Source: Podarcis vaucheri (Eukaryota). Taken from it: 64,000 nt of DNA. The DNA lies in assembly GCA_965113315.1 (NCBI GenBank), contig OZ220364.1, one strand, 5' to 3'. Below are positions 1 to 57,821 of this stretch, in pieces. Both the position numbers and the translations under genes were made by a program. The stretch's first letter is position 1. Every line of letters starts with the position of its first letter. The notes beneath the pieces are model-generated. The model ran no database searches. It saw only the letters and a list, made by a program, of their open reading frames with translations, and was not told where the DNA came from.

Positions 1-500
1 GCCCGTGAAGCCCGCTCGCGGGGCAGGACACCGCCTTGCCCCCCCCTGCCTTCACACCAGGTATCCCGGGCCGGGAGTGGGGGTGTTTCCCCAGCCAGGC
101 CTTTGCCTCCGCCTGCCGTGCCAGGCTTATCCGTAGTGCGGGGGTGGCGGGCGGCCCCTCCGTGCCTCGTTTGTGGGACACCTGGCTGGCCGGTGCTGCC
201 GGGGGACTTTGGGGGCGATCTGGCCGGTCTGCCTGCCGCGCTCTCCGGCGCCCCCGCCCTGCCTCCCCTGGGAGCCTGCGAGTGCGCTGCCTCCACATGG
301 AATGAGTCCCCATTCTTCGCGTTCGCCTTCCCCTCCCATGAGCCTTACTTTTAATGCTTTGTCCGATTTGGGTCCACGTGTGTGTTTATTGGGGAAGAGG
401 GTTTCTAGCATGGAAAAACGGGGTTTTTTTTTAAAAAAAATTGGCGAGCTGGGGTTGTTTTCTGCCTCTGGCAACACTGCCTCTGGTCGTGCCTGTGCGC
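1..500. promoter_or_regulatory. 3' tail of a CpG island, presumably the PRKACA Calpha1 promoter/exon 1 island
   Basis: Very GC- and CpG-rich to ~330, fading by ~500, against a CpG-depleted background. No MGNAAAAKKG coding sequence is in the window, so exon 1 is inferred to lie upstream. Confidence 0.75.
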
Positions 501-20232: not shown

Positions 20233-21616
20233 TAGGTCTTCTTCATCTGGTTGGATTCTTGCTCAGCAGCTTGCATATCTGCTTGTAGTGTTGAAGGGTA
20301 ACCCTGTTAAGTCAGAGGCACGGAAATTGCTGAGGAGGGCAGAGCACCTCAAGGACTCTTCCACCTGTCCTCTTGGTGTGCCATTCCATGTCTTACACAA
20401 CCATTGCTTTCTGCCGCTGTGGCTGGTTGCATTTATTCCAGCATGCTCATTAAAAAATATTTTAAGCTTTTGTGCTGAACCCGTCAGAGATTTGCCTCCT
20501 GGGATGACAAAAAAATAATAATCACCTGATCTAATGAAGCCTCACCTGCACAATGTTTAACCCTTTCTGTGTCTTCAAAGGTGAGAACCTGTTTGTTTTT
20601 TAATGCCACAAATTAAGATTCCTAACTTCTTGAGAGCTTGGAAACCTGGCAACTTCTCTGCAGTTAGTAGGTCTACCCTGCTCTAAGTACTTGGTTTCTA
20701 CTACTGCCTACAAGTCAGTCTAGGAAGGAAATTGTTTGCTCTACTTCTGCTACATATCACATTGATGTATTTGATCTGGATTGATTCAGCTGAATTGTAG
20801 TACTGTGAAGAAGAGATCATTATTTCCTTTGTTTTTCTGCTAGAGATGCGTTAACATGCACCCAACGGATTTGCAGTATGAGCAGTAGTTGTTGTGAACT
20901 TTTGTCTTTTCTGTAAGTCGGGTCTAGAATAATGGTTTGGATTTCCAGAAATGGCATGCTTAATACTCAGTTTGAAGCATTTTCCAGCCATGTGAGAAGT
21001 TGTTCTTCCTGGGTGCATCATTCGTCTACCTAGTTCAGTAAGCTGTCTTTGGCAGTAGTCAAATCTGACTGCTCTCAGAGGAAGTGACTGTGTTCTTGCT
21101 TTGTGATCTGAATGATGATAAAGTGTTGGCCTGCAGAGAGGCTTTCTGAACTTTACGAAATGCAGAGCAGCAAAGGGATCCTCTTTGCATTCTTAGTTAA
21201 TAGTTCCGAGTTTCAGTCCTTAAGCTGGTGCATCTCACCAGTTTCAGCAGAGAGAATGGACAATGGAGGAGTGCAGTTTCCTCATGTGCATGTTTTGCTG
21301 AACATTAGTGCAGAAGATGCAAAGTTGGTAGCCTGTTCCTTTAAGGACTTTGTACAAAGCTGGCACCATGCCCAGCCTCTTCTCTTCTTCTTCCCACTTC
21401 AAGGCAGTTCCTTTGGGGCTTTTCCTGAAACAATACCGCAAGCTACCCTGCCACTCTGCTTGCTCTGCTTGCCCTGCAGACAGTCTCTGAATCAAGAGCC
21501 AGCTCTGCTTTGAGGGACAATGGAGAGTTGCAGCACAGGCAGAATGAACTATGCAGCCTGAGTCTGGATCTGTGCTGAAGGCGTAGAGAACAAGGCTGTC
21601 GTCTGGAAACAGCGAT

Positions 21617-21766
21617 ATGGAAGCTGAACCCCGTAGTCCTCAGAGTATGTGGGAAGGCGACTCCGAATTCAGCTTCCAATTTTGGACCCAGCTTTTTCTG
21701 TGGATGCACTTGGTTGGCCGGTTGGTCACTTACGTCCTGCGTAGCTTTGGGGGGCTAAAGCAATAA
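21617..21766 (+). CDS. 49-aa small membrane-protein-like ORF nested in PRKACA intron 1 (SMIM46-like)
   Basis: MEAEPRSPQSMWEGDSEFSFQFWTQLFLWMHLVGRLVTYVLRSFGGLKQ*. Strong Kozak (gatATGG), 9 CpGs in ~185 bp, hydrophobic core, polypyrimidine tract and AG at 21376-21407. Resemblance to human SMIM46 is recalled, not searched. Confidence 0.6.
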   Translation: MEAEPRSPQSMWEGDSEFSFQFWTQLFLWMHLVGRLVTYVLRSFGGLKQ

Positions 21767-23061
21767 CTCCTTCCTGTCCCTTATGACTTGGTTGTTCTTT
21801 GGAGGTCCACTGTGACATCTAATATTTTTAGAGCTCTTTGGCAAGCAGTCCTATGAGGAAGAGACGTCGCCCTGTATTTTTTCTTCTTTCCTTACCTCCA
21901 TTCTTCTCTGTTCTGGATGGCCTTGCCTAAGAAAGGCTTCTTAACCTTGAGAGAAGGACAAAGCTTTAGAAGCAAGATTTCTGGTTTCTCTTCCCATGTT
22001 TATCCACACACTCTGGACTGTGCAGTAATCTTTTGCTTCATTCAGAGAATATGAGCTTTTGGGGGCTGCTTAGCAATAGAATCCAGAAGTCATGAGGACT
22101 TCCATTCTGCAAATGAATGTTCACCCTTGGAATGTTGTATTAGTGTTTAGAAAGAGTGATTTCTATCTCCAGAACATGGAGCATCCAAGGGGATATGGAC
22201 TTGAATGAGCTCCTACTTTGAGTTTTGGGGGGCCACACCTTGTCTTATTCCATCTACAGCATCAGAGGTTTGCTTTGGTGTGCTCTAGTTTCATCAAGTT
22301 ATCTGAACATCTTGGTCCCTTCCAACTCTACAATTCTATGATTCTATCTCAGTCTCCCTCTCTCCTTGAATTGTTTCTTCTTTCTGTTAAAGAATCACCT
22401 CGTTTTGGAAGATAATAGGGCTTCCCTACCTGACAATTTCCTTATTTGCCCTAACTTCAGCCCTGAGGGCAAAAGAGATTCGGAGAATTTGTGAGCTATT
22501 TTAAGCCTCATTGCATAGTCCTTGCTACTGCTGATCTGGCAGGCCTTGCTCCCTCTGTATTAATCAAATCTGCCTGCTGTTCACCCTCTGATCAGCTGTG
22601 TAAGTGACCAGGCTCCCTGTATTTCTTTCTAAACAGAGAGAATATGGAATGAACTGTCTTGGAGCCTTTCTGAGCCTTAGCGTGGGGGCTTGGGAAAACC
22701 TAATATGGATGGCTGCCCCAGACTTGTTGCTGAACTGACATGAATGCTATGGTCCAGGGAGGTGGGTTTGATGGAAGTCGAGAGCAGTCGGCTCAAGCCA
22801 AAATGCCTGTGTGAATCACTTGGAGGGGAATGTTAAGAACTCTGCTGAATCTGGGACTGTGTCTGTTCTCCGGTTGCTGCCTTTACCCCTCTCTTCCTGT
22901 GGCGGGACAGGAAAAGCAGTGCCGCTGCCTCTACCTGTTGGCAAATAGCAATGACTGAAGAGAGTGCCCTCCTGGATCCTGACTGAGCTGCTTGGCTGTG
23001 TTTGCTCCGAGAGCAGAGCTGGGGCAGAGGAAAAGAACCGGTGATAAAATAAAAGAGAAAC

Positions 23062-23251
23062 ATGAGCCATGGAGCTGAGGTGAACTCTCAAAACTCCAGC
23101 AAGGACAAAGGGTGTAAGATGTCGGCGCTACAGAAACTGGAGAGTCTGGCAGGGCGGATCTTTTACTGGGGGCCACGGAGTGATGCTGGGGCACCGAACG
23201 TTGGGGAGGCAGCCTATGAATCTGAGCACACGGCAGCCTGGAATGAGCAGA
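23062..23251 (+). CDS. PRKACA: PRKACA alternative first exon encoding a long Cbeta2-like N-terminus (CalphaL)
   Basis: 63 codons plus 1 nt: MSHGAEVNSQNSSKDKGCKMSALQKLESLAGRIFYWGPRSDAGAPNVGEAAYESEHTAAWNEQ. Donor A|GTGAGT in phase 1 makes A+TG = Met with exon 2. Motifs match Cbeta2 ALQKLEGFASRLF and SEHTALWDRSMKEF. Confidence 0.9.
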
Positions 23252-23676
23252 GTGAGTTGACAAGGGAGCACGGTTTCCAGGGGTGCCAGAATCGGTGGGT
23301 TCCCCCGAGACTCTGCTCCAGAGCTGCTGCTGTTCTGTGCCTCTTGGTGCATGCGTATGCTTGTGGTTGAGTGTATAACTGGAATCTGAAATAGGGCTCT
23401 GATATTTTTCAGAGAAGCCCGCAAAAGGCTATAGCCTTAGCTCCGACAGCCATTCTGGCTATGACTGTTGACTACCTCTTTCCTCATGCTAAGCTAAAGT
23501 GTAGGGTGCTCAACTTTAATGAGGCCACAGCTGCTTGGTGTGTGGCTTTGATTTTGGCCTTAGAGAAGCCCCATCGGTTCTCAAAAGCCCACTTCAACTC
23601 ACTCTTTCTTACTATTTGTTATCAAGCTGTTGGAGCCGGATGCTGCCCTAACTCTGCAAGTGTCTATTGCACGGAG

Positions 23677-23812
23677 TAGAGGTGGGGAGCCTGTAACTCT
23701 CCCAAAGTTGTTGGGCTTCTGCTTCTATCAACCCTGGCCCAAATAGCCAATAGGAAGGGATGATGTGAGTTGTAGTCTAGTAACATTGGCGGGGCACAGT
23801 TCCCCATCCCTG
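23677..23812. mobile_element. ~130-bp palindromic non-autonomous DNA element (hAT-like MITE)
   Basis: ggtggggagcctgt...acagttccccatccctg inverted ends. Relatives at ~5570, 15340, 35170, 35403, 37408, 44595, 51288 and 56110. Confidence 0.6.
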
Positions 23813-24559
23813 ACTTAGAGAAAGGATAGCTGGAGCGTTCCTGGATGTTCTCCCACATTTTGTGGGGAGAATTGCAACTTTTTGGGAAGTTGTGGGGAAA
23901 GGTAATTATTAAGAAGCAAATTCTCTTTGCCCGTGTGTGTTTCAAAACTTTCTTCCCATTTTGACAGATTTTCCCCGGCCTCTCCAACTGATGTTGTCAC
24001 TTTAGCTGTTTTGGTTAAAATGTGTGGTCAGAGTTGTTGACATAGGGAATTTCAGTCTGAGGTTGACAGAGTGATGTGAGTGAAAGTCATGGGCTGATGA
24101 TTGTTCCTTTTTCCTCTTTGCTGCCACTACCAGTCAGGATTGTAGCTTTTGTTGTTGACTTGGTGTGATGTCATATTCTATTTCTGTCACTGGCTGTATC
24201 TTAATTCATGGTGTTGTCTACCTGTAGAGTGATGGGTTGTAAATAGATGGTAGGTCTTCTATTGTTCTGTCTGGACCACACATTACTTCTTCATCTAAGG
24301 CAAAAGGGAGTGAATGCAGTCTTTTCTTGGATCCTCAAGTATGTTTAAACAAAACTGTCACAATGTTTTGGCAATGCTGCTTGGTCTAAAATAGAACCTT
24401 GTTGAACATCTGATGCCAGATTCTTCTGTGGCCCCTTTAATCTTTTGGCATTGACACCTCCTCCATGCTGCATCTGAGTGTGTTGCACAGGAAGGAAAGT
24501 GTTCAAAACCACCAGCAGCACATTTTGGATCTATTTAGCTTATACAATACACATGTAGA

Positions 24560-25130
24560 TTCTGTTCAACATCTACATGAAACTGCTGACAGAGGTCATT
24601 TGTAGATTTTGGCTGTGGAGTCATCAGTATGCAGATGACAGCCACCTCTCTCTCATTTTCATTTGTTCCTGTAAGATAGTTGAAAGGCTGAATTGCTGTC
24701 TGATATCTGTGATGGACTGGATAGGGTGCAATGAGGGCAAACATAATTCAGACAGAAGAGGTACTGTTGGTAGTTGGACCGTGTGATATGAGATTGGTTT
24801 TGCAGCCTGTTCGGGGTGGAAAGTGTGAAAGTGCAGATGCTTAGTTTTCTGCAGGTGGTGAGGGGTGCCTTTTCCCAGTATCACCAGGTGCAACAGCTAT
24901 CATCCTCCCTGACACAGGGGAATCTTGCCACAGTCATTCCTCCTCCTCTAGTGACCTTCAGATGACAGTGCTGTAACTGTTTATGTGGGGCTGCCTTTCA
25001 AAAGCGTTTGGAAACCTCAATTAGTTGCAGCCAGAATGCAAGGCACTTTGAATCTGTAATTAATGTATATGAATGCTGATTCTACATGATTTGCACTAGC
25101 TGCTGATTAATTATCATGTTCAGTTGCCTT
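24560..25130 (+). mobile_element. Old L2-type LINE reverse transcriptase fragment
   Basis: LFNIYMKLLTEVI...HQYADDSHL (RT YADD motif), degenerate downstream. Confidence 0.75.
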
Positions 25131-28100
25131 GAACCCTCTTGTGAGGAACCCCAGGCTTTTGCCAGAGTTCAGCCTGCTCCAGAGAGGGTGCTCACCACAC
25201 AACACCCTGCCTCTTCTTAGCTAGGCAGATAATAAACCAGAACTCCAGCTAACACTGCACAACTCTCTGGCTTGCTGAAGACCAGAAGGTCACTGCAGGG
25301 CTGGTCCCTTTGCATCAGCCAGTCCACCCAATCTGACACACAGCAATGCGCATCTGCCATCAGCTCTGTCTTCTTTTGGTTTTTTATTTATTTCAAGATC
25401 AGAGCACTTGGGAAATGTGAAGTGCTTCCGATCTCCTCCGATGTTTCCAAAATTGACAAGCCAATTGGAGCAGTTCATTTCAACAGTATAATGTAAGACA
25501 GTAGGGGGTCATTTTGTTGCTGCAATTGGCAAGGATTTCTAATCCTTAGTTTTTAACAATCTACTATAAACCCCTTGGGGATCTGTTAGTAGAGTATCTT
25601 CAGTCCACCCCGGCCTAGAGCATACAAATATAGGGTAACGTCATGAATGATTGGTGGCTATTTAGCTTCCTGCATAGTTTCATTTGAATTAACTAGTTAA
25701 GCAACTCTGCAGTAGGATTAGATTTCTCTAACAGTGATCCCTGTATTTCATGTTTATTAAATCCTCATAAAGAAAGCATGCTAGTTAAATCAGGGTGGGT
25801 TTTGTCTATCCTGCTAAGCACTGAAAAATTTGTGTCTGTTTTTCAGAGATGTCCTATGTCCTTTCAAACAAGGTGTTCTCTAGATTTGTGTCATCTTCTC
25901 CAGAACTGTTGACTGGATTTGCTTTCCTACCTTGCCCTGTCCAAATCCAGGTTTAAATGTGACTGTCTTTGATCTTATATTAGCTTGGCAACCCTAAATG
26001 CTTAAGCAACAATAAACAAGTATGTTACTTGTCAACCACCCACTGGGGAAGATGCATAGAGTGCATCTGTCAGTGAAATTTTAGGCTTTAATCATCTGTA
26101 CCCTTAGAGCTAGGTTGGCTGGCCAATTTCATTTAGACAAGGACTATGAGTTATTGGTACTCCTGGCTGAAATGTGGCAGACTTCCTTTGTTGATCACTC
26201 CTGCAAGCTTAGTGTTAGCAGGACCAGTTGCTTCTCCAGGTTTCCTAAAGCCCACCAAAGCCTTCCCATGCCAGTTATATAGAGCAGATGTCAAAGGGAC
26301 TTGTAATTTGGGCAACACATGTTGTCTCTATTCCCAGGGATTCCCTTCCCTCAGTAACAATCAGATGCATAGTTAAAACCTGTGCAGACTTGGAAAGGTT
26401 GGCAGCTAGGTAGAGCTGTTTATGAGAAATTCCTGCAAGATTTGTGATGTACGCATTCAGTGAGATGAATTATGTTCCCAAGTGTAAATATGTTCAAGTG
26501 GTCTGGTCCTTTGCTTCCTAGGTCTTGGTACTGTTGATTTAAGAATATTGATTTCTCCCACTATGCTTTAGGCTCTAGGACAACTTGAAAGATTAGTTTG
26601 CCTCTCTTGAAGACAAGGCATAAAGCAGCAGCAACCCCACTTCTCCGTGTGGCCTGGTTGATGCAAGGACTGCATATTATTCTCTTGGCAATTGTGCATC
26701 TAGTGTTGCAGGAGAAGTGTGATTGGTACATGTATTGAATGGTTATCTTGTTAAATCATAGTGCAAGAAGGCATTGAAGTTAAGAATCCTTACTTTTTGT
26801 AGGAAGGCTTGCTGCTTTTTCTCTCCCTCTCCCCGCCCCCTTTCCCTTGTACCTTCCCTATCTTATGCTATGGCAAGTTCACAACACTGTGGAATAGAAT
26901 GCCCCTTTGAAGCCTAAGTTGGGCTGGCACCCTCAGCTCTGCAATAGCTGATGGGCAAGTGCTAAACAATAGCTGGTGGGAGGTGCTGTTTGACTCACTG
27001 CTTGCCTGCTAATTTTGGTTCTTGGCCTGAATCGGCTGCAGTTTCCTATTGAGCGCAGCCGTGTTAGGGACATGGCTGGCTGTTCAATCTATTCCCAGGG
27101 AAATTGATTAGGGTCACTGTGTTCTGGGCCTCTGGCAAAGCTACTTTGTCCTTCATCTTCTAGACCACTGGGGCATTGTGGTTGAAGGGTGGAAAACCAG
27201 TGTCTCTCTCCTGTAGGTGGGCCTCTTACAGAACATGACTAACTGGTCTTAAAGCAACCTGTAGCTGAGAGAAAGGCTTCAGGATTGAAGAGAGATGAGT
27301 GCTCAACCTTTTTTCTCTGGGCGCTGTGTTAAATTATTCTGACTGCACCTGTACACTCATAATTATTACATAATTCTGTTTTGAAGGCACTGAAGAATTC
27401 AGCAAAAATTGTGCTCGCTCCTTTCTGCTTTGATACTTTTTGTTCTTGCAATATGTCTCAAGGTACCTCCTCCAGTATCTAAAATGTCTTCATTCTGCAC
27501 ATATAACTTAGTGGAAGATGTTCTCAATGAGCTTCTTGCCTTAATTTTGTAATTTTGATGCTTTGCTTTAGGGTCTTATAAGCACAGCAATAGAGGGGCA
27601 TGTCTGTTGTTATCCACTTTTGTCACCTACTTCCTACAGCAACTGCCCTGTACTGTATTTGCTACTAGCAGTAATTTTTGCCTGCCTTGTTGAGGACTTG
27701 AGCACTTAACATTGCCTGTCTTTGAACCTCATCTTTGAGGTAGTATTGCAAAAGGGCAAATTACAAACTCTTTGATCATTGTACCACCTACCAACAAAAC
27801 TTTTGTCTTTTTTGAATTGGGCTACGTTTTATTGGTCAGTTTTATGGTGACCAAAGCAGCATTGGTAGCAAAACTTGGCCAGAAGAAAGATTGATTAGCT
27901 AGATTTGAGAAGCCACCACCCTCTCAAACCCCTTGCCTCTCCTCCTCAGTCAACACATCTCACCAGCCCTGCTTCATGCCTTCCTCAAGTGCTTTTGCTG
28001 GCTGGAATGCATCCTTGAACTGTGATGATCCCACTTCCTCGTTGGGATGGAGAGATGTGTACTTTTGCATGGTCAGCTTCTGCATGATGTGGCTTCTGCA

Positions 28101-30324
28101 TGGTCAGAATGCAACCTACTATACAAAGGTAGTAAGAGCTGCATCTGTCGCTCCACCTACTTCTTGCTTCTGGTCCTGCTTCCTCTCTGGAATACATCTC
28201 TTGGAAAACTGCTCAAGAGGGAACAAGACTCACGTTCAAGTCACTGCTCAACCATGAAGCTCACTGGGTTGTCCTGAGCCAGTAGCTCTTCCTGCTTAAC
28301 TTACCTTACAGGGTACTTAGGAAGATAAAAGCGGAGGGAGCAGGGAGAACCATATATGCTACTCCCTGGCCTTCCTTGAAAAATGGAGTATAATTTAAAA
28401 GCAACTGTATGGCAGGAATCTTTCAGCCATAAAGGTAGGATTATTATAGTGGGACTGGGTGGGAGGTAGGAATGGAATGGTCACTTATAACACTGCACCT
28501 ATCCAGTGGCAGGTGCTGGTAGCATTTGCTCAGCCCCACTGCACACAGTAGTAATAGCACCAAAGACTCCTATGCACGGGAAGAATTGCTTTTCCCAGGC
28601 ATAAATAGTAAGTGCCATCACTGGCAAAGTGCAGTAACTCTTGGAACAGAAGCACAGCTTCTGAGAAAGGCATCTCAACTGCACATGACATGAGTTGCAA
28701 CTGCATACTCATTGCATAAAAATAAAAAAAAACATTGAAGGGCCCTAACAAGAGACTTGTGCTCTATAGGCTCTTTAAAAAAAAGAGCTGTGTACAAGCA
28801 GATGATCATAGCCAGTGCTAAAGCAGTGAATGTGCTTTGTGGAGCCTCTGCCCCCTGCCACTGCCCACAAGCACAGAATGGGATCTGTGTGCATAGAACG
28901 CCAACTGGTGACTATTCTGGAAGTGAGCCAGGGACTGGCAGCTTGAATGCCAGTGTTGAATGGTGTCATTGTTTCTTATTGATACACCTGCCCAAGAGCC
29001 ATAGATTCTGGAAATGCAAGAGAATGAAATTTGCGAGGAAAAAACAATGTCCAATCTTAAGTGAGAAAGGGAGCAGTATTATGATAGAAAGGGTTTGGTG
29101 GCTGCTGAGAGGAGACAATGAAGACAGCGAGAGCCACAGCAAAACTCCAGATTCCTCCACTGAGCATGTAAGCTTCCACGTTGGCTGCTCCCAGGACTGG
29201 ACTGCACTAGCAAAAAATTCCATATCAAGTAGAAGTACAAAAGCACTTTTGCCATATTTTAAATGGAATACATAAACAGGGTTCTTACTTGTTCTCAACA
29301 AACTTCTCCTTCAGAAAGTTGAGGAAACAATGAGGGACATGCTATTTTTAGATCAGAATCTGACTAATAGGAAGGAAATGTTTGAGTCTGTGAAAACAGT
29401 TGGCTATGTAAAAGAAAGTAACTATGAACTGCTGAAATCCATGATCCTGAAATAGGAAGAGGAAGGGCAGCAGAATAGCAATGAATGTTTAACAGCTGAA
29501 AGCTTCAAAAAGAGCATTAGCTTTTTGAAAAGTGTTGGCTGGAAAAATGTTTTGAAAGGAGAATCTATGATAGCAATCAAAGCCTGATGTTCTTTCCTAA
29601 TATGATCAGGGCAGGAAATGGGACCTCCAAAACAAAGTTGAAAGGAAGTCAACCTACCTTAATATCTGGCTCTGACTGATGGTGCAAATGGGGACATCTT
29701 GCATTGCTTCTACTGTCTGACCCTTAGAGAAAGGGAGCTCTGTTATGAGAAATGCAGCTGCCTGGAACACCTGTGTTCTCCATGATTGCAAGTCATCATT
29801 TGGTGTGACATTCTTGGGGTCTTCTGGGAATCTCTCTTGTGCCAACCCTAGGCATTTTGCTGCCTCAAGTAGAGTCCGAATTATGTCGACTAGGGTCAGC
29901 ATTTTAAAATGTCTTTGCCACCTATTCAGATACAGATTCTTGCCTTCATCCATCTCTTCATCACTGCCCCTTTGGTGCCACATACAGCAGAACTCTACCT
30001 TGTTACATGGTAGGGATGGTCATGATCCCCCCCCCTTTTGGAGATCATAAATTCTAAAAACAAACAATTTCAGACCAAATAGGTTAAAAAAAATGTAACT
30101 GTGCCTGCAGCACTAAAGGAAACCATTACTCACCTTGGAACCTGTTGGTAATTGGCCTTCTAGGGTGGTCTGATCCATCAAGAAGTATGCCATGCTGTTT
30201 TGTCTCCAACTGTAGTCCTTTGCACTACTTTACAGGTGAAACATTTCCATGTGTGTCTGAAGGTTGGAAGGATGTTTGCCATGTCTGAAAGTGGGGTATA
30301 AATGTATTTAAAAAATAAAAAATT

Positions 30325-30408
30325 GTCCAGTAGCACCTTAGAGACCAACTACTGATAAGTTTGTTCTTGGTATGAGCTTTCATGTACATGCAGACTTCTT
30401 CAGATACC
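30325..30408 (-). mobile_element. Penelope-like terminal repeat remnant with minimal hammerhead ribozyme motif
   Basis: Minus strand 30408->30369 reads GGUAU CUGAAGA A GUCUGCAUGUACAU GAAA GCUC AUACC. Confidence 0.65.
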
Positions 30409-32577
30409 TTGTGAGGTTGATGGACTTGCATTTCATGGGGCTCAATGTGGTGCCTTCCATGGTTCTAGATTCAGGTAGGTGTTGGTCTGATGCAGTAGAA
30501 ATATATAAATTAAAAAGTGTCCAGTTGGGTAGTCACCTTCCCATTGAACAGACTTCAGTAAGAAGTGCTCCTGGCTAGCCTGGCCCGCTCCTGAAATGAA
30601 GAAACCAAGGACTGACGCCATCAGTTGTTTGATGGTATCTCCCTCCCTTCCAGTATTCTTGGAGCCTGCTGACCATCATTCCGTCAGATGCATTCAGAAC
30701 CTGGCACTTTCAGACAGAGCCTCCTTCCCATATGCTGCCAGAAATCATTGGATGCTCTTCACAGGGGCTATTACAAAATTCTGAGACAGACTCAGAACAG
30801 CTGATGCTCGAAAAGCAAAAGCTGGGGGGGAGGGTTTGCTTTTGATTCATTCTTGCTTATGAGACGCTCTGAGAAGGTTGGGCTGATCTTTGAGCATCCT
30901 CTGTATGGAGGTTATCTTTAGCTCAGCTACCGAGCAGTCATTCCTTCTGAATCACTGTTCTGCTTTTCTCTTGAGAAATTAGTCCAGCTCTGACTTGAGG
31001 GAGCAATGTGAAGCCTTAGGCCTTCTGGCATCTCATTGTACTTGTGCTGGATAGGACTGCTTTTATCTCCTCAAATATATGTGTGTGTGCCTATGTTGTA
31101 GATTTCATTCAACTTCGTATTTCCACGTGAGTCCTGCTACTATCTCTAGCTGCTTCTGTTGGGCCACCACCTCAAGAGAGTCCTGTGCTGGGTAGCTGCA
31201 TATGCTTAATCTTCTAGTAAATTGGCAATTGTGGTGTAGCTGTCATGCCTTATTATCTCACTGGTCATCACCTGCAGGCCATGTAAACAAGGCTCTCTCC
31301 TCTCATCCCTTGGTATTTTCTTTTGGATTAGGAGCTGCTCTTGTATAGGTTACTTTAAGCCTGTGTTAACCTGTTTCTATTAACGAAAAGAGACACAGGG
31401 CTATCTGTTCTTGGCAAGCATGTGCTTGAACTTGCTTTCTGTTCTGGTGTTTGTTTTTAGGATCTGATCTGGGGCAGCTGGGTTAAGAGGCGATTCCTTT
31501 TCAATCTTTGGGGCTTCCTCTCTTTTTCAGCAGCCGCATGACACTTCACTCGCATACATCAAAGTAAAAACCTAACAAGTAATGAGGGTGAGTGAAGCAG
31601 GAGCTCAAGGTGGAACTGAGATCACTAATGGCAGAATGAAAATCTCACGTCTGGGCTGATAAAATGTTTTCATTCCGAGGGAACAAAAGAAAGGGGTTTC
31701 TCTCGGCACCAGCTGGAGACTTGGGCTTTTACTTTCTCTGCTTACTTTCCCCTCTTAAGGAATAGAAAAGAGATGTATAGTCACCACTTGAAAACAAGCA
31801 AGTGCACCGCTACCTTTCCTCTTTTAATCTGGAAAACAAGAAGGGTGAGTGCATGCAGGCTGGTCTTTGCAGGGCATGGGGGGAGGATCTACGGCAGCCT
31901 TTTGTGATAGGCTTGTGAATGAGCCGCCTTTGGTGACTGGCAGTATCTTTCTCGCCACCTCCTCCTCTCTTTCTCTTTGCATTGCCATCCCCTGCCCCCC
32001 TTCTCCCCCCCAGCATTGTTTCGTAACCAGCTGTCCCACTTACAGAACAGTTGTTTCTGGACTTCGGGGAAGTGTTACACTGGGGGGGAAATGGTTTGCA
32101 CAGCATCTGCGATGACTCTCTCGACCTCATCTCTAGGCAGAGGCCACGTTGGCACGGTCTAGTTCAAGCCTCACTCCACTTGGAATCTCAGGAGCTCCGT
32201 GTATGGTGGATCTTCAAGGTGGAGCCTGAATAAGCAGCAGGTGTTCCAGAGTAGCCTTTCCAGGTGCTATGGTAGATCACTCCTGCTGGCTATAACGGTG
32301 GCCTACACTGATGCAGTCGAAGGAAAGGGAGAGAAGGCGAAACAGGCGTGCCCTGGAGCTGCGCTCAGCCCTTTGCTGGCTGGGGACTCTCTTTCGCTTC
32401 CAGGAGAAGTTGAGCTCCAGGCGGGGGCCGTGTTTGCTTTTGCCACCAGGGGCAAAGTCCCCCATGAGCCGCCGGGTCAGCCCTTCCCCGCCACCCGTTT
32501 TGACCTTTTAACTGTATGGTTGCAGCTACGGAAACAGCCAGGTCACCAGGTGGACCCTTGGGGTTGAGGGCCACCGA

Positions 32578-32584
32578 ATGGATG
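32578..32584 (+). CDS. Candidate short alternative first coding exon (M-D-V, Calpha2/CalphaS-like)
   Basis: ATG GAT G|GTAAGG, phase 1, giving MDVKEFLAK with exon 2. In-frame stop upstream at 32509-32511. Sits at the end of a CpG-enriched block (~31800-32640). Confidence 0.4.
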
Positions 32585-33845
32585 GTAAGGAACCACGGGG
32601 TCCTGGGTGGGTGAACGGACTGCTGTCTGCTTTCTCCCTCGCTCCCTGTGTTTATTAGACAGCTGCTTCTTTCAAGGAATGTATGGTGAGAAAAAGGCTC
32701 TAAAGACAAAGACATACATGGATCTATCTGTGACGCTGAATGTGGCACAGTAAATTTTTGAGCAGATGGGTTTGTACTCACATGCAGCCCCCACAACAAA
32801 TCAGCTTTGACTGTCATAGACATATGTAGAAACTATTTAAATGGTTAGCCTTGGGGGAGTTATTCCTGATGAATTATGTTTCCACTAACTCCAGAATTTA
32901 TCCCCTTTTATTTCCAGTTAAAGAACCTTGAGCGTTGAACAAAAGATGCTCAGAGCTGCTGTTTTCTCTCTAAGGGTACCATTTTTGCTTTATGAATTTG
33001 CAGCACGTCGTAGTTTGAGCTGAGCTTTCTTGCTGCTATTACCATCCTAATTGCTGTTTTAAATGCTTATATGAAGGAAGAATCTGCCAGTTTATTCTAA
33101 GTGGTAGATTCAAAGCCTCAAAAATCAAAGGTGTTGGCACCATAAAGAGTAAGGAGGGTCAATTAGGAGAAGTCTAAGGATCAACATGCTCAAGCGTGTG
33201 CTCCTTGCTGACAAGCCGCCTAAAGCCAATTCTGATAACTTTCACCCATTCCATTGGACATGGTTGTATTTAAAATGTCTAGCTCTCAAGGTTGTGATGA
33301 AGTATCAGAAATAGCTGTTTAGATTCTGCTAAACACTTAGGATATGGATGAGTCTTGAAGCAGATTCTCTTGTTTCCTGGAATTCTAACATTTTATCAGT
33401 ATTCCAAACTCATGGGAGTGGCAAGGGTGGAGAAGGCTCATCATTTGTGGGGTAGGAGGGAAAGGTTAAAGTTCCCTCTCTATTTTTTTTTAACTGACTG
33501 GCTTCCTAATGGTGCATTTAAGTGTTACATCTAATTTGGCTTTCAGTGACAAATGGCAGGTGAAAACATTTTCCCCTGGAAACCTATGCCTGCTCACTTT
33601 GACCACTGGTCTTCTCTAGAGGCCTTTCTTTCTCCCCCATTAATGTCTGTTGTTACACCTTCTGACCTGGTCACTACAATCTCAGTTATAGGGTGATGGG
33701 CAGCCTATTGGTGAAGAAACTGCACCATGCTTTTTTCTCAGAAACACTGTCCTGTCACTTATTAGGACCATGTTCACAGATGTCATGGCTGAGCTGAGAT
33801 GTCATGAGACTTCCTGTTTCAGCCGCCAATAAAAAATAGAGCCAT

Positions 33846-34075
33846 TGTGATGTAGTGTTACTGTATTGGACTTGGACTGGGGAGACCCTGGGTTCTAATC
33901 CCCACTCAGCTATGAAACCCACTGGGTGACCTTGGATCAGTGACTCTTAGCCTAATCTGCTCACAACTTTTGTTAGTATAATTGGAGAAAGGGGGATAAT
34001 AGAATTGTGTATGGTGCCCTGAGCTCCTTGGAAGAAGAGCGAGATATAAATGTAATAAGAAATAAAAAAATAAAT
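33846..34075 (+). mobile_element. Old tRNA-derived SINE (Squam3/MIR-like)
   Basis: tgatgtagtg...gggttctaatccccactcagc...gggtgaccttgg and an A-rich tail. Similar decayed copies near 4900, 10880, 46430 and 50960. Confidence 0.6.
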
Positions 34076-35402: not shown

Positions 35403-35531
35403 CAGGGGTGGGGAACCTGGGGCCCTCCAGCTGTTCTTGGACTTTTTACTCGCATCGGCCCCAGCCAGCATGGCCAATGGTAAGGGACAATGGGAGCTGG
35501 AGGTGAGCAATATCTGGAGGCCCAGAGGTTT
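35403..35531. mobile_element. Palindromic hAT-like MITE (adjacent to another copy at 35170-35295)
   Basis: caggggtggggaacctggggccctccag...tctggaggcccagaggtt inverted structure. Confidence 0.6.
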
Positions 35532-38500: not shown

Positions 38501-38892
38501 GCCCAAGTAGCTGAATTAAATCCAAAGGTGTGCCAGATACATTAAAATTGAGAAAAGGTGAAGCCCATTCCTTTGTTTTTCAGATCTAGCAAAAAGATTG
38601 TAAAATGCTGACCTACAGCTCCCATCATTCTTGACTGTTCCTGACCATTCTGGCTCAGACTTGCGGGAATTGGAGCCTAGTGACACCTGGAGGGCCACAA
38701 AACTTAACAGAATTCTGCTGCCTTTTGCAAACTTGCTTCAAAGCGTTCTGGTCAGTGAGAGTGCTTCAGAAAGGAAAGCTGAATCTGCTCTTCTCCAGCC
38801 TTCTCAGCTCAGGCTGTGGGTACCATGGCCACAGAATACTGCTCTTCACGTTGGGTCTGTAATACAGGGGGAGGGAACAGCTGTCTTTGGAA

Positions 38893-45937: not shown

Positions 45938-45999
45938 TGAAGGAGTTTCTTGCCAAAGCCAAAGAAGAGTTCCTCAAGAAATGGGAGAACCCGTTGCAG
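45938..45999 (+). CDS. PRKACA: PRKACA exon 2
   Basis: ttacag|TG AAG GAG...: (V/M)KEFLAKAKEEFLKKWENPLQ|gtagga, 62 nt. Confidence 0.97.
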
Positions 46000-47857: not shown

Positions 47858-47986
47858 AATACGTCCAGCCTGGATCACTTCGAACGGCTCAAGACCCTGG
47901 GTACAGGCTCTTTTGGGCGGGTGATGCTCGTGAAGCACAAGGAGACCGGGAATTACTTTGCCATGAAGATCCTTGACAAGCAGAAA
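47858..47986 (+). CDS. PRKACA: PRKACA exon 3 (Gly-rich loop, catalytic Lys72)
   Basis: [43 protein letters not shown], 129 nt, AG/GT. KETGN is alpha-type (beta has KATEQ). Confidence 0.98.
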
Positions 47987-48084
47987 GTGAGTTTGAGCCT
48001 GTCGTGGAGTTCTGGGAGTTTGTGCCTGAGGTTGGCAAGAGGGAGGCCCAACTGTCTCTGGCTGATTTCCTTTCTGTCTTGCAG

Positions 48085-48183
48085 GTTGTGAAGCTGAAGC
48101 AGATCGAGCACACCCTCAATGAAAAACGCATTCTCCAGGCTGTGAACTTCCCATTCCTTGTCAGGCTAGAGTATTCTTTTAAG
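48085..48183 (+). CDS. PRKACA: PRKACA exon 4
   Basis: [33 protein letters not shown], 99 nt, AG/GT. Confidence 0.98.
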
Positions 48184-50278
48184 GTAAAGGGTGTCTTTGC
48201 ACTCTCTCTCCCCACCCCTGCCTAAATATTCATTCTCTGGCTTTCTGGTCCTCTGGACACCTGCTCTGCTGCATCAGATCAAAGGCACACAGGGGCCAAC
48301 CAGATACTTAAGGGAAGCTAATCACTTTACCATAGCACCCAGGTAATCTTTTTGCCTCTGTCTGGGCTTGTGGCTAGCTGAGCATCCACCACTGCAGGCA
48401 AGCCCAGTTGGCTGGATACTTTCTGTGCCGGTACAATAGGTGCAGTGTGCTTCCCCTTTGGGAGCAGCCTGGGTGGATGGATCTCCTGGGCTAGAGCACA
48501 CATTGTCATGATAGGCCCTCAAAACTCTTCCTTATGATAGGCCTTCAATATTTTGTTTTGTCCTACCTCTTTCTGGCGTTTGTGCAGCTTTGGGCAAGTA
48601 AACAAGTGGGCTCTATAAGCATACAGAATGTTAAATAAAGCCAACAGTATTTTATCATTTTGTGTTTGAGTTACCCAGAGAACAATCTTACTGGGTTGCC
48701 TTATATCAATACAGTAAGTAAGGCTGCAATCCTAACACCTCTTATCTAGGAGTAAGCCCCATTGAATTCAGTAGGATTTACTTTTAAGTCAATGTGAAAG
48801 TGCTATAGGGAGCATGCAAGTCTGGACTATGTGACAAGGCAGCCTTGTCTATTAATGCAGCTCTAAATCGAGGTTTTGCAGGCTTCCGTTCATCTCAGCT
48901 ACATGGAAAGGATATAAAAAGCCATTGAGTCGTACCTATTGCCACAAAGGGCAGAACCATTTTTTAAAAATCTGCTTTGAAGGAAATATGCATGTTTATA
49001 TACCCTTTGTGGCTGTAACCTAAAACCATGGATACAGTGTCTGTTTGAAAGCACAACCAGAAGAGGAGGCCTCTACTGCTGTCTTATAGGCTCCTTCCCA
49101 TTTTCCCTCTGCTATAGCAGTCCTTGACAATGCCGTGTCAGAAGCTTACCTCTCAATCAGAATAAAGCCTGAACAAATACATTCATGCTACCTTGCAGAG
49201 ATTGTTTCAGTTGTAGACTTCGGGGGTTAAAAAAAAAAGTATCTTAATTCTAAATACTATTTCCTTGGCAGTAAGTCCCATTGATGTTAGTGGGACTTGC
49301 TTCCAAGTTGGTTGGTGTTAGACTGTGTGTCTAATTCATTCCCTTGGTAGTGAGAGTAATTCTGTAAATCTACAAGAAGATCCTTGCTGGATCAGCCCAA
49401 AAGCCCATCTAGTCCAGCATTCTGCCCAACAGTCCATACTAGCCAACCAGGTGCTTATGGGGAGCCACAAACAGGATCTGAGCACAACACTCTTTTGTTT
49501 ATGAACTGGTATAGAGAGGCCTGCTACCCCATAGTGGAGTGACTATAGTTATCATGACTAGAGGTCATTATTAGTCTTATCCTACATGACCAGGTACTAA
49601 GAGGTTTGAGTTCACCTTAGTAACTGCTACTTTTGAAGTTGTTGCCTTTTTTTTAAGGTCATGGCAGGAAGAGACTCTGAGCAGAACATAGCGCTAAAAC
49701 CAAAACACTCTGCTATAGAAACAGTTTTGCACCAAGCAAAACTATATGATCGTTGTGCAAATAAGTTGTGCAAATAAAAGGGGACTAGAGGACAAGGAAC
49801 TTGTATACATTCAGATTTTAAAGAACTTGCATTTATTGAGCAGAAAGCAAGGCAATAGTGGTAGAGAGCGATGGACTAGGGAACAAACGTGAAGATTGGA
49901 ATGGGGGCAGTTAGGAAAGTGTAGCCATGTGAAAGGAACGAAGTACTGATCTGAAATGCTGGGACCTGTTCCTTCACCACCACCTAGTCTATAGGCATTG
50001 TATCAACATTTTGGTTTTTTATCTGCAACTGCAAGGGCAAGATACTTCATTTTTTTAAAGGAAATTGGCAGGAACCTGAATTCTTTCTCCCAGCCCAACA
50101 GCAAACCCAGTTTCTGTTCTAGAGTGCTCCTATAGATGTGTGAGTACACTGGTGCAAGCATCACTGCAGAAAGGCAATATAGAAGTAAATAAATTGGGGA
50201 GCTGTGGCCCTGAACATACAAGGTTGGGGTGGGTGCAAAGCAGTGCTGGCCAGGACCCTGAGTTGTTTCTGCCCTTGA

Positions 50279-50368
<90 letters not shown>

Positions 50369-51476
50369 TGAGTGTGCTCCCCTGTCATTGCAAGGTTGGG
50401 ATGATGCTCTCAGTTGTGGGAACAGAACAGCTGAGAGTTGGGCTTCCTGGGTTAGAACAGTGGAGAGGAACCAGGAAAGAACTAGGTTTCTCTTGTTCTG
50501 CACTTTAAAGTTGAGTGGAGGATATCTTCCCCTTCCAGCAAGCCCTAACTTCTGGGGTAAAGAATATGCAGTTTAGAAAAAAGTCTAATGATAGGACAGA
50601 AGCTGCATTTGCTTTGACATTAATTCCCATCCTCCTGGATGTGAAGCTGGTGACTTGCAAGAAGCAGATCATTCCTATCAGAGTGTGGTGACAACAACAC
50701 TGAGTTCCTGATTATTCTCGTTAACACTAAGGGGCAAGGGGTGACCTGGCTTGACAGGCCCATATGAGCGGAGTGCTTTTCATCAGAGGATTGTTAGCGG
50801 AGACTTCAGTATAGAAGCTACCACTACAGAACATGCTTCTATCTTGCTTTGTATCCATTTACTGTATGGAAAGCGGGATGCTTGTTAACATGCTCTCATT
50901 TAACTGTGTAGTTATGTGTGCTTCAGATAAATTGCCATCTTGTAGAACATTATAGAACTGGCATAGCACTGAGACTGAGCAACGGACTAGGAAGCCCCCA
51001 GTTCGAATGGTGCCTCTGCCATGAACTCAGCTACATGACATTACGCAAAGTTCTGTCTCACAGCCTCAGCCCCACCATCTGCGGCACGGAGAGTAAATAG
51101 TAATGACTTACCTTACAGGATTGTTGCAATGATTACACCTACATAAGAACATGGTCAGAATAAGGGAAGAGATTCTGCATGCGCTCAGCCAGAGGTGGGG
51201 CAGGGAGAGCATGAGTGAAATGTGTGAGATAAGACTCAAGGTCCTGTTGAATGGGGAACAGGGGAGAGAGCTGGTCTTGGTTTGTGGCAGGGGTGGAAAC
51301 CTGAGCCCTTTTGCTGAGAGTACAGCTCCCATCATCCCTGACTGAGCTGGTTGGGGCTGATGGGAGTTGGAGCCCAACCCAACAGTGCTCTGGTGGGCCA
51401 CAGGTTCTCCATCCCTGGTTTATGGGGATCAGTGAAGGTGAAGACTCAGCTGGCATACATTAGAGATGGCTTGTGA

Positions 51477-51653
<177 letters not shown>

Positions 51654-52162
51654 TGAGATTCTGCTGCACAGCATTTTGAGAATTCCTCTCCTTGTCAGTA
51701 TGTCTAGGAATACTGTTTCTTTCCCCAAATATCTGTAACAATTAGTTTTTTAAGAAAGGACTAAATTTTGACAAGCTTAAGTAACTTCTTAGGAAATTTT
51801 TGAGTTGACATAAAATCTAAAGGCGTACCTCTTTTTATCATTTGTGCTTTGAATATCAGGAAGTTCCTTCCCCTCCTCGCCAAAGTGGTGCCTGCTTAAC
51901 CAAATATGCTCCAAACCACCAGATGCACTTTTCCTATTTTGGTGGCAAGTAGGGAGCATGGTAGAAAACATTCATTATGAGCAGTTGCTGTTTAGAAAGC
52001 AATACTTACCTTTGGAAACAAAATCTTCTCTCTTATAGATATTCCACCCGAAACATCACCTCTCCATGTACTGGGGTTTGTGCAAGCCTCTATCACTTCC
52101 TTTGTGCTGCTGACCCTATTGGTGTGGAGAACTCAGCTTTGTTAATTTTCTCTTACCTCCAG

Positions 52163-52258
52163 GTGACAGATTTTGGCTTTGCCAAACGAGTGAAAGGCCG
52201 AACATGGACCCTTTGTGGGACTCCAGAGTACCTGGCTCCTGAAATCATTCTGAGCAAG
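52163..52258 (+). CDS. PRKACA: PRKACA exon 7 (DFG, activation loop Thr197, APE)
   Basis: [32 protein letters not shown], 96 nt. Confidence 0.98.
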
Positions 52259-52380
52259 GTGAGACACCTGTACTCAGGAACAGTTTTTTGGGCCTTGTTC
52301 AGCCCAGAAAGAAGACTGTGTTCATCTCAATATCTTGCAGTACACTGCAATTAAGTGCCGATCATCCTTGGTGTTTGTGA

Positions 52381-52656
<276 letters not shown>

Positions 52657-55345
52657 TAGCTCACACTATACAGTGCATACATTTATAATGTTCGGTGAAG
52701 CATGGACCTGCTGTGTTTACCTGCCAAATAAATGTTGGAGTAGGTGGAATTCAGCAGACTGTGAACGGAAACCCCCTCTGTATTTTCTTGGCAAATCTTC
52801 CAGCTATTTTTTGGTGCTGCTTGCAGCTTTCACCACAGGAACAAATGTCTGGAAATCTAGATGGCTGCAGTTATATTCACAGTCTGACCTTATTTTGAGG
52901 AAAGGGGCAGATCTGTTGGCTTCATTTGAAAACTGAGTCTCAAATTTTGTATACTTTAAACAAACTTAAGGCTCTAGTCTTCAGTGTGAAGAAGAAATTA
53001 GTTGAAGAATTCTACAGGCTAAGTGGAATATGGATTTTCTGAGTCTAGAATTCCAGTGTCTGTAATACTTGGCAGTTCTCCCAGGTGAGACTCCTAGAGT
53101 AATGTGAGGCCGAGCAGCACAAAAAAGATCAGAAAAGCACAAAGTGGAGTTTTATAAGTTAAACAGAGTAAAACAACGGAAAGGGGGAGACATGCAACTC
53201 AAGATCTCTGTAACTGCAAGGCTGTGAGTTTTCAGAATATTGCTCTTGGAATTTGTAACATGGCCTAAAGGAGTGAGGTGTGGCAGGGCAGTGTTGGAAG
53301 AGCTTTGCAGGAAAATGTGTGATGGCAAAGGAACATCTCCCCCACCCAATAAAACTAAACAAAAGTAATGGAGATCAGTGAATATATGTGCTAGCTTTCA
53401 GATGGCTGGGGCTTGCTCTTGCTCTGCTGCTCCAGAACATGCATGCTCTCTTTGAGTCCAGCTGTCCTTTTCTCCCTTCCCTGCCATTTATCCTATGAAT
53501 TTTCACTGGCCCTACTTGCCAACTTTGATTTCTTAGGTGGTTAATGCTAAAATAATCAGTATTAAGTTGCCGTTTGAGTGAGGCTATTAGGCCAGGAGCT
53601 GTACTAACCCAGCCTTTCTCAGCAACACCTAAGATCTTCTATTGAGTCAACTAATTGTTGACGAATAAACATGCATTGTGGATAACAGTTATTCTGTGGC
53701 ACTGACCGCAGTTTACTTTGGATTTGAAATTTGTGCAGGTGTGTTATGGATCTCCACAATGTCCTTCAGCAAAGGATTTGTCCTTGTTAAGATTGCTGTG
53801 ATACTATTATTATTATTACTATTATCATTATTATTAGCACTTAGTATCACAGTTGGGCATGAGGCATTACTATTAACTAGCTGAATTAATATAAAAGCTC
53901 CCAGAACCTTGTTTGTGATAGGTTCTTGCATCAGGACAGCTCAGCTAAGGTTGCATATAAAAAACATAGTCAAAATGTTAGGCGCTTGATCAGGTTTGGT
54001 TCTCTGCAAAAGAAACTGGTGAAACTTGTGCACCTCTGTGAGGTGGGCTTTTACTTAGCTAAGTCATCCAAGTAATAATGACTGAGGGTTAAACACGGTT
54101 GGTCATGATGACAGTCTAGCACAGATCTCAGCAGAATGAATAGCAAGTAACCATTAATCAAGATTAGGTGCTCTGATTAAAAGAGAAATGGAATCTGGGT
54201 AGAAGTAGCTCCTTTCACAATACCAAGAGGCTAAGCCAGACTCTGTGATACTTACGTTTGATCTTGGTGAAGCTTGTATAGAATTCCAGTCTTACATTTA
54301 AACTGGTACACTAAATGTACTTAAATATAGGGCATGTCTACACTACAGATTTGAGCCAGATTTTTTCAAACTGATTCATCTGTTTCCACCACCCTGCCAA
54401 GGAAACCTAAGAGCATTGCTTGGGGATCCTCATTGCTTCATAGAATCACATTGCCTAATGCCTTAAGCCCCTTTAAAAACTATGGTGTAAATATGTGCAT
54501 AACCTAGCGCCACATCCCTACTAATCTCTGCCTGATAACATTCTACCTTTTTATCTATCTATTATCTTTCTGTGGTAGAACAAAATGTAGGTTACAGTAA
54601 GTATATATACGTGAACTGCCCTGAAATCTTTGGATGAAGGGTGGTATACAAATTTAATACACAAATAAAATAAATATAGCCACTTTGCCAGTGCTTTTTT
54701 CTTTGGGCATTTGCTCCTAGGGCTTCTGATTGAAGATCTTCAAAGCCACCCTGAATTTCATTTAGGTGAGATACATTGTCGAGAAGCAAGCACCAAGAGC
54801 ACCTGTATTATTTTTAAGGGTTTTCTTGCTGTCAACTTCTTTTGCCAAACTGCTTCTTAAATTGTTTTCAGTTTTTAAAATGTAGTTCAGGGGACATTGC
54901 GTCAGTTGTACATTTGTGTGTGCATGTGAATTTCTCTCTTTCAGCAGTTCCTGTGCCAAGCCAGTCAGACCATTTTTTTAAAATTCAGAAGTTATAAATC
55001 AGTTTTTAAAGAGAGAGAGGCAAGCGTTCCAAGTGTGTTAGTAAAAGCCCTCCTTCTGTCCCTCTTGTGTTTAGAGTGTTTCCAGAGGGATGTGCACATC
55101 TCTGTCTCTGTGGCAGCTAGAAGTTCTTGATAGAATAAATTCTAGGATTTGTGGGAACGTGCAGTGTTAACATTTAAGGACATAAGAAGAGCCTGCTAGA
55201 TTCTGTTCTCACAGTGGCCAACCAGATTCATATGGGAAGTCCTCAAGCAGGGCATGGGTGCAACTTCCCAAGGCCCCAGTTTTGTGGTAGATGTTGCAAT
55301 TGCAGACATAGGGTGAATTAGTGCTTTGGCTACAGAGCATAATGA

Positions 55346-55711
<366 letters not shown>

Positions 55712-56667
55712 TAATGCCAACTCACTGTGGGTGTGTAGTGCTGGTACACAAAGCCATCCAAACACGCGTATCACCTTTTGGAAGCGTATCGCTCACAAGC
55801 AAGAGAGCCCCCAACCCACAAAGCTTATCTCTGTGTTGAGAAAACCTGTGTGTGAAGCAGCTCTTGCACTTCGGTGGAACTTGCAGGCCCAATATTAATG
55901 ATATAGGATCTCGGACATATTGTGATTATTAGTTATCTGTGAAAAGATCCCAGGATCTAGTTAAATCCACTGTTGCATCTGTGTTGGAAATTGTCATGTC
56001 TTCTCTTAGACCTTCCCTTTGTGAATTTGACTGAAAGCTTCAACCCCACAGCTGCTAATGGCATCTGGATGCTAAAAACCACCTCTGGTCACGTGTTGCT
56101 TTCCACGGTATAAGCCTGCGGCTTTCCAGATGTTGTCAGACTCCAGTTCCCACCTTGCTGGTCAGGAGTTTGAATCCAGCACAGTCTGGAGGGCCATTCC
56201 TGGTATAGGATCTGCTAGTGGCCCATATGAAAGTAATGGCCCATAGAACATGATGAGAGGGCAGGGCTGAGAAACCCCTTTGTATGAAAAAGCTGAAGGG
56301 AGGCAGGATAGGATGATGTCGTTGACTGTGTTCACTCTTAGTTCTGCTGCCTACCTAATTTGCAAATATTCTGGAGATGAAGGTTATAAGTTTCAGTTCC
56401 TCCTAAACTGGGGGAAAATAGCAGGCCCAATTAAATGCATCTCTGCCTTGAGAGGAGGAAGCTGAGCAGCAAGGCAGGGGTCAGTAGGTACAGCTTCCAT
56501 TTTGGCTGGGCCTGATTCAGAGCCAAACAAGACATGTGTTTTTGTTCAGTCTGTGCCTGCCTATTTGCTTGTAACATGCAGGTGTGGGGAGAGCCATGTT
56601 TTATGTCAGGGTGGGCACACAAGTAAGGGGATCAAGGGCTATTCTGTCCTCCCTTTTCCTTTTTGTT

Positions 56668-56930
56668 TTATTATAATTATAATTTATTATTTATTGAATT
56701 TATATTCCGCCCTATATCCGGAGGTCTCAGGGTGGTTCACAAAACAAAATCAAAATATAAAACCACAAAACACATTATCAAAATAAAAACAACAACCCAA
56801 TAAATACACCCCAACAAAGCAAAAAAAATACTGTACCACATTCTAAAAGGGCATAGGATGTCAATCAAATCAACCAAAGGCCTGGTTAAAAAGGAACATT
56901 TTTGCCTTGCGCCTAAAGGTGTATAATGCT
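56668..56930 (-). mobile_element. L2-like LINE 3' end
   Basis: Reversed AT-rich tail then tccgccctat...ctcagggtggttcac. A short forward relative lies at ~54611-54675. Confidence 0.55.
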
Positions 56931-57695
56931 GCTTTGAGATTCTTTCCCCCCAAACCAGTTCCAGTATTGGAAGTAGAGTGGGCTAAAGGGAAAGGAGATT
57001 AAAGTAACCCAAGTGTGGCAAGGTAAAGGAGGGGAAAGTTTTGTTCCCCTCTCCTGCCAACTCATTTTTGATACTCAGAAAGTAGATCTCAGCCCCACCT
57101 GAGAGATAAGCAGTCAAGGACCTGATTAAAAAGCACAGGCATGTCTGGCTTGCCCTTTAGCGGGCTTAAGCTATGAGTGAGGAAGAGCTCATGTTGCTCT
57201 CCTTCCCTGTGGAATAGGCTCAGCTGTATCCAAGGGCCACATTCCCTTTTGGGCAGCCTTCCAGGGACCACATGCTGATGGTGGGTGAAGCCAGAGACCA
57301 AAGCAGTGGATGTGCATTTTATGGTGCAATAGGCTCCTTTCTACAGATGTTTGCACACACCCACAACCTCTGCCTTCCATCCAGGCAAACAAGAGGTATT
57401 ACCAGAGCCAAGGACCTATTCCAGTCAGGCAAGGGGGGGCAGGGAGGTGTGTGTGGTCTGGGGAGGGTCCCACAGTTCAGAGAGGAGTACATTTGCCCCC
57501 CAACCCTGAGGTTCCCCTGTATGACATGCACTCTCTCTCTCCTGCCCACCTATTTTTGTTTCTGGTTAAATTGAGAAGGCTTAAACCAATAACCCTGCAG
57601 GGAGTCCAATTTCACAGCGAATGGTATTTCTCTCTCCTAAACCCATGCAGACACGACCCCTAATAACTCCTCGCTTTGTCCCCTCCCCTCCACAG

Positions 57696-57821
57696 GTGGA
57701 AGCTCCCTTTATACCAAAGTGCAAAGGCCCCGGCGACACAAGTAACTTTGACGACTACGAGGAAGAGGAGATCCGGGTGTCCATCAGTGAGAAGTGCGCC
57801 AAGGAGTTTGCAGAATTTTAG
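57696..57821 (+). CDS. PRKACA: PRKACA exon 10 coding part (AGC C-tail, stop)
   Basis: [41 protein letters not shown], with FDDY, Ser338 and the terminal FxxF motif. Confidence 0.98.

Follow-up and report, generated by a model that had tools for sequence, protein, structure and literature searches.

Exon 1-L of a reptile PRKACA and the long-tailed PKA catalytic subunit CalphaL that it would encode

Long amino-terminal tails on PKA catalytic subunits

Exon 1-L and its product, CalphaL, have been described in most vertebrate classes, including reptiles (Soberg et al., 2017; PMC5526564). The available passages of that paper locate the exon after exon 1-1 and before exon 2, in phase 1, report its absence from birds and mammals, and list as marks of the long tail a predicted helix and residues Lys/Arg21, Phe30, and Trp59 (Cbeta2 numbering); they also state that each sequence is a RefSeq record or is matched by at least 20 SRA reads, with Anolis among the aligned species. 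The CalphaL model is repeated in the available text of PMC6143667, nothing on CalphaL appears in the corresponding portion of PMC12083921, and among the matches listed from the literature outside subscription journals there is no functional study of the isoform. The sequence-only reading that singled out the exon analyzed here had pointed to a long Calpha isoform from comparative work on vertebrates, which the accessible text of PMC5526564 indeed names as CalphaL; its description as an isoform not well studied in humans calls for correction, given the reported absence from mammals and birds.

Calpha1, the canonical 351-aa form, shares the 335-residue core encoded by exons 2-10 and carries a 14-residue, Gly2-myristoylated tail that is served by a CpG-island promoter 23 kb upstream of exon 1-L. 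In the DNAJB1-PRKACA chimera, the foreign part replaces exon 1, and its N-terminus is a folded J-domain derived from a tumor rearrangement; the CalphaL tail, unlike that J-domain, is native and predicted to be mostly disordered. Like CalphaL, the chimera (PDB 4wb7, 405 aa) has a long N-terminus added to the Calpha core, and its match starts near the junction. Cbeta2, whose tail comes from PRKACB exon 1-2, is kept in mammals and birds, unlike CalphaL.

Exon 1-L within an alpha-type gene

The window, that is, the whole 64,000-nt stretch analyzed (G000:C10:47926001-47990000 of a 1.6-Gb genome), contains the exon on its plus strand at 23062..23251, between exon 1-1 and exon 2. The 190 nt are open and in phase 1: an ATG at 23062 begins 63 codons, which are followed by a single A, with which the Met64 codon begins, and by a GTGAGT donor (23252..23257, plus strand). 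Exon 2 (45938..45999, plus strand), whose acceptor is common to all first exons, opens AG/TG at 45938, and the codon split across the junction is ATG, giving Met-KEFLAK. Exons 3-10 (47858-47986, 48085-48183, 50285-50367, 51503-51629, 52163-52258, 52405-52527, 55439-55603, and 57696-57821, all on the plus strand) complete an intact kinase core over 47858..57821, the nine core exons being joined by eight GT-AG introns. Exon 1-L joined to exons 2-10 reads as a 1200-nt CDS with a single terminal stop, encoding 399 aa with Ser rather than Gly at residue 2. The exon length, phase, and Met-KEFLAK junction given by the sequence-only reading are thereby borne out, as are its 399-aa product lacking Gly2 and a further in-frame ATG at 23119. 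The canonical exon 1-1, with a 46-nt coding part and a Gly2 start (G000:C10:47925786-47925831), begins 215 nt upstream of window base 1 and yields a 351-aa product on the same core; the tail of its CpG island occupies window positions 1..300 (plus strand). In position, phase, length of tail, lack of an N-terminal Gly, predicted helix, and equivalents of Lys/Arg21, Phe30, and Trp59, the locus agrees with CalphaL as set out in the passages of PMC5526564, from which only the species differs.

ATG-started, phase-1 open stretches of at least 60 codons ending at GTRAG occur five times in window 1-45937, and among these only exon 1-L ends at GTRAGT. With five stretches of like shape in intron 1, the case for the exon rests on homology rather than on shape, and shape is what could be offered for a chance intronic open reading frame beside a chance GTGAGT, a reading that the homologue matches and shuffle scores refute and leave scarcely credible. 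The Anolis orthologue (XP_008102820.1 / XP_062826586.1, named isoform X1), also 399 aa long, is identical at 53 of 63 exon residues (84%, E 4e-27) and the 401-aa alligator protein at 41 of 63, both with Met-KEFLAK at the junction, while a partial Caretta model retains 36 of the 63 residues and sturgeon 14. Eight short proteins match the exon with E values no higher than 1e-11. Of these, seven are unnamed Logan ORFs, among them P0020, whose exon portion is identical to that of the window and which was excluded from the conservation counts. As the six remaining, reptile-like Logan ORFs all read Ser-Glu after the last exon codon, like the A/GTGAG of the window, the position of the donor is inferred to have been kept, and related organism A has the same frame and donor (contig 23051-23307, free of differences and gaps).

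Comparison with the 187-nt exon 1-2 of the same genome's own PRKACB, likewise in phase 1 and ending in a split Met codon, gives 18 of 63 identities, including Ala-Leu-Gln, Leu-Glu, an Arg, a Phe, and a Trp four residues before the junction, at a score reached by 0 of 5000 shuffles; against the beta rows, no shuffle in 5000 reaches the score for four of the five, and 60 do for the fifth. The homology of the exon is thus beyond chance at the sequence level, and the alignments that had been proposed as a check, to PRKACB exon 1-2 and to CalphaL orthologues, place it as orthologous to the annotated long isoforms of Anolis and alligator and as paralogous to its own PRKACB exon 1-2. No Pfam family covers the exon, PDB searches with either long tail gave no real match, and a homologue search with the alligator tail gave none.

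In ungapped comparison with eight other rows, identity reaches 20-21 of 22 over residues 20-41 and 9-10 of 10 over residues 54-63, dips to 5-8 of 12 over residues 42-53, and stands at 11-16 of 19 over residues 1-19 (six rows), as against 15 of 41 where the six Logan rows read on into the intron; these segment counts leave out alligator, Caretta, and sturgeon, which have gaps or no anchor. The near-identity of residues 54-63 in reptile-type rows departs from the poor conservation outside the helix noted in the available text of PMC5526564. Two turtle gene models, P0003 and P0019, join the exon oddly, one without the Trp60 block and the other not in frame to KEFL; given that the turtle-like ORF P0024 keeps that block, both may be annotation errors.

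Were the gene PRKACB, the exon would simply be the well-known Cbeta2 exon 1-2, and two observations lean that way, namely a detectable likeness to Cbeta2 tails (z 7.8-10.2 for four of five beta rows) and a Tyr68 in place of the His68 given as alpha-invariant. Against it, a tree of the last 335 residues of 17 rows groups the gene with alpha across a 100/99 alpha/beta split and sends the PKA gene on C25 of the same genome to beta. Core identity is highest to squamates (327-329 of 335), which makes a squamate reptile the probable source. Position 66, in the available text of PMC3625193 the sole site without overlap between the two clades, is Gly in the window gene and Glu in the C25 gene. Six of seven residues tentatively listed as alpha-invariant in the same text (Gln35, Thr37, Glu64, Gly66, His68, Ser109, and Glu334) are present, and none of the three beta residues Asp42, Gln67, and Arg319 is found (His42, Asn67, and Lys319 instead); row P0014, out of register in the signature table, was excluded from these counts. 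The one mismatch, Tyr68, encoded in exon 3 (47858-47986), recurs in Anolis, Vipera, and Sceloporus (all three other squamate alpha rows), not in turtle or alligator, and looks like a squamate change, since every squamate alpha row has it and the 2013 signature set was without reptile Calpha. Asp64 was additionally seen in Anolis and Sceloporus alpha.

The neighborhood likewise argues against PRKACB: ASF1 exons (ASF1A and ASF1B not separated) lie 11-13 kb upstream of exon 1-1, and a SAMD1_WH match (E 1e-27) lies about 7 kb beyond the PRKACA stop. According to the passages available, SAMD1, PRKACA, and ASF1B stand in a row in human (PMC3363957), and mammalian PRKACB sits between TTLL7 and SAMD13 (PMC11438212). 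Moreover, a separate, complete PRKACB, carrying the beta signature residues, lies at G000:C25:36942179-36997403 on the minus strand (L009-L015), with exon 1-1 at 36997403 and its own exon 1-2 at 36977855-36977669; it was located through the kinase core, a six-frame genome search with exon 1-L having missed PRKACB exon 1-2 and returned one chance match on C29. Tree, signature residues, and ASF1/SAMD1 neighbors refute the beta identity, whose residual probability is negligible, and by these sequence comparisons the window gene is the alpha paralogue, PRKACA. Beyond the window, L006:1189-2091 (plus strand) is the first coding exon of a SAMD1 gene, encoding winged-helix and small helical domains. 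At two other places in the genome (G000:C18:47991049-47991438 and C10:124764883-124765164), ASF1 matches over a long stretch without interruption, possibly in processed copies or long exons; spliced ASF1 copies lie on C10 and C17.

RNA coverage, splicing, and the start region

The sequencing-run search listed no run recorded as RNA. Four runs of related organism A, consisting of three of 14 contig sets guessed to be RNA (word share 0.40-0.74) and one of four raw runs, were compared with the window over 21500-41400, a stretch that exon 2 lies outside. In the runs guessed to be RNA, the exon is spanned by an X1 contig at 22715-23388 (depth 8), by an X3 contig at 23041-23396 (depth 6; other pieces of this set extend from 22586 on), and, in a third set, by a contig at 23051-23307 (depth 4) without differences from the window. 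In the exon bin the three sets reach contig depths of 7.3, 5.0, and 2.3, as against 0-0.26, 0-3.1, and 0-1.6 over nine bins at 24156-30131, an excess over most single-copy intron bins that is clear in X1 and weak in X8. No spliced junction was seen at 23251, all three contig sets continuing past the donor, without a splice, for 137, 145, and 56 nt; raw run X23 (RNA from an unspecified tissue, about 12% read) has zero reads in the exon bin. None of the 24 loose ends listed out of 910 falls at 23251, those 24 being at other, mostly repeat-like places, and because repeats swamp the 21500-41400 comparison, little about the donor can be read from its tables of joints and loose ends. At 22313-22347, 30317-30503, 35173-35481, 37437-37466, and 40521-40746, all four runs show interspersed repeats of very high read depth. 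Splicing from 23251 to 45938 in this organism is nevertheless likely, on the strength of the orthologous gene models and of PMC5526564.

The reach of the contigs marks 22586..23061 (from 22586 in X3 and from 22715 in X1) as a putative 5' UTR or promoter-proximal region, putatively on the plus strand, which contains no TATA match and no CpG island. Transcription had been expected to start within 22850-23060; the RNA-like contigs, which cannot show a start, reach 22586-22715 and suggest that it may lie upstream of that range. Eleven upstream ATGs lie in 22586-23061, and none runs into 23062.

These data give some footing to a reading in which the exon is conserved and yet rarely spliced in this lineage, with mostly nascent or intron-retained RNA, a weak promoter, and little CalphaL protein. 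All three contig sets run through the donor, the exon bin is empty in the only raw run, the donor is modest (five of nine U1 consensus positions matched, as against 6-8 for the eight internal donors), and the covered 5' region contains the eleven upstream ATGs. Weighing on the other side are the two protein blocks and the donor position, kept across squamate-, turtle-, and alligator-type rows, the annotated spliced models in Anolis and alligator, and the facts that contigs drop rare variants and that the runs come from unspecified tissues. Rare splicing is accordingly judged unlikely, and the exon is very probably a functional CalphaL exon; the fuller reading, in which exon 1-L of reptile PRKACA is probably joined to exon 2 and yields a 399-residue CalphaL whose 63-residue tail, devoid of Gly2, is predicted to use one short helix for docking on a membrane or partner protein, is held with good confidence.

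Other candidate exons were noted in passing. Within exon 1-L, a candidate second donor at 23113/23114 (GGT/GTAAGA, phase 1) would cut the first exon to 17 residues, skipping the helix and Met20. Farther downstream, 32578-32584 and 32679-32685 are candidate forms of the short exon 1-S, placing Met-Asp-Val or Met-Tyr-Val ahead of KEFL, both in a GC-richer patch with an X3 contig of depth 17.5 just upstream at 32226-32382. A third short-exon candidate, 35470-35479 (Met-Ala-Asn-Val), is doubtful because it overlaps a very-high-depth, repeat-like stretch.

A predicted targeting helix and a second start codon

Two conserved blocks stand out in the tail, both on the plus strand: codons 22-36 (23125..23169), comprising a predicted helix over residues 22-34, with Lys25 and Phe34, and then the alpha-type aromatic pair Tyr35-Trp36; and codons 54-63 (23221..23250), with Trp60. 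Lys25, Phe34, and Trp60 align with Arg21, Phe30, and Trp59 of the genome's own Cbeta2 exon; the Cbeta2 rows differ in having no Met before the helix and polar and basic residues after it instead of the Tyr/Ser-Trp-Gly of the alpha rows. With 11 rows, AlphaFold predicts for the exon peptide one helix at 22-34, with pLDDT of about 86 at residues 21-30, and coil elsewhere at 50-60, rising to 71 for residues 31-40; the full-length model (mean pLDDT 38.5) is too poor to use, and draws the same helix plus an A-helix from residue 55. The amphipathic targeting helix proposed by the sequence-only reading thus stands as a predicted helix, while its amphipathicity does not exceed that of shuffled peptides: the best 11-residue hydrophobic moment, 0.58 at residues 23-33, is reached by 235 of 2000 shuffles. 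The best window falls on the 22-34 segment in nine of ten rows (18 residues) or eight of ten (11 residues), and in view of the shuffles it is this conserved place, rather than the size of the moment, that is telling. Two of 12 alpha rows, sturgeon and the partial Caretta model, lack Trp60. The residue corresponds to position 11 of Calpha1, which would put it one turn of helix ahead of Val15 in the myristate pocket. Cys18 was dropped as a candidate palmitoylation site; it is absent from alligator, both turtle-type rows, and P0023.

In the proposed working of CalphaL, a second promoter, of non-CpG type and lying some 23 kb into intron 1, would drive the exon at a low level in some tissues. The catalytic core would be that of Calpha1, for which reason activity and R-subunit binding are likely unchanged. 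Along the lines of the published model, residues 22-36 would fold on binding and act as a targeting element, tethered by an acidic, variable linker (residues 40-53), and residues 54-63 would extend the A-helix, with Trp60 covering the empty myristate pocket. A targeting role for the helix, as modeled, is slightly favored over its absence.

The second in-frame ATG (23119..23121, plus strand) encodes Met20, follows a Lys codon, and would start a 380-aa form. Leaky scanning past Met1 could thus yield two proteins from one exon, the shorter bearing the helix at its very N-terminus as a myristate substitute or organelle-targeting peptide, with the Ser exposed once Met is removed likely to be N-acetylated. 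All 12 alpha rows have Met20, as against none of the four beta rows having a residue at that column; Lys precedes it in all nine rows with upstream sequence, which fixes an A at -3. The ATGs of Met1 and Met20 both have A at -3 and neither has G at +4, Ser comes after each Met, leaving no N-terminal Gly from either start, and the sturgeon model begins at Met20. The rows were chosen, however, by likeness to the exon and do not amount to neutral sampling, Met20 may owe its retention to the helix and Lys19 to a basic patch, and Met1 and residues 1-19 are conserved too (11-16 of 19, six rows); of three records beginning at Met20, moreover, one is a bare ORF call and another a gene model out of frame to exon 2. 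Two proteins from one exon are on balance improbable, though less so than rare splicing. Somewhat more doubtful still is the most specific version, read from sequence features, in which the alpha-specific Met20 and its fixed Lys-Met context would give a 380-aa subunit that opens with an amphipathic, N-acetylated helix ending in a Phe-Tyr-Trp cap, a putative myristate-free membrane or organelle anchor; if true, this anchor would have no counterpart in Cbeta2 and would have been lost by mammals and birds. A conserved second Met is not mentioned in the passages of PMC5526564 on Met and start codons (12 of 14 places), and Met20, with its possible 380-aa form, may be the sole addition to the known isoform.

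The single 399-residue CalphaL remains the preferred product. The exon is real and correctly identified, and since the isoform has already been published and is annotated in Anolis, its presence here will not surprise a PKA specialist. As one of two long-tailed PKA catalytic subunits, CalphaL finds a usable model in a lizard-type orthologue with an intact exon, and its comparison with Cbeta2 points to residues worth mutating to learn the role of the long tail in the human enzyme. With a long N-terminus that occurs naturally on the Calpha core, CalphaL also offers a control for work on DNAJB1-PRKACA.
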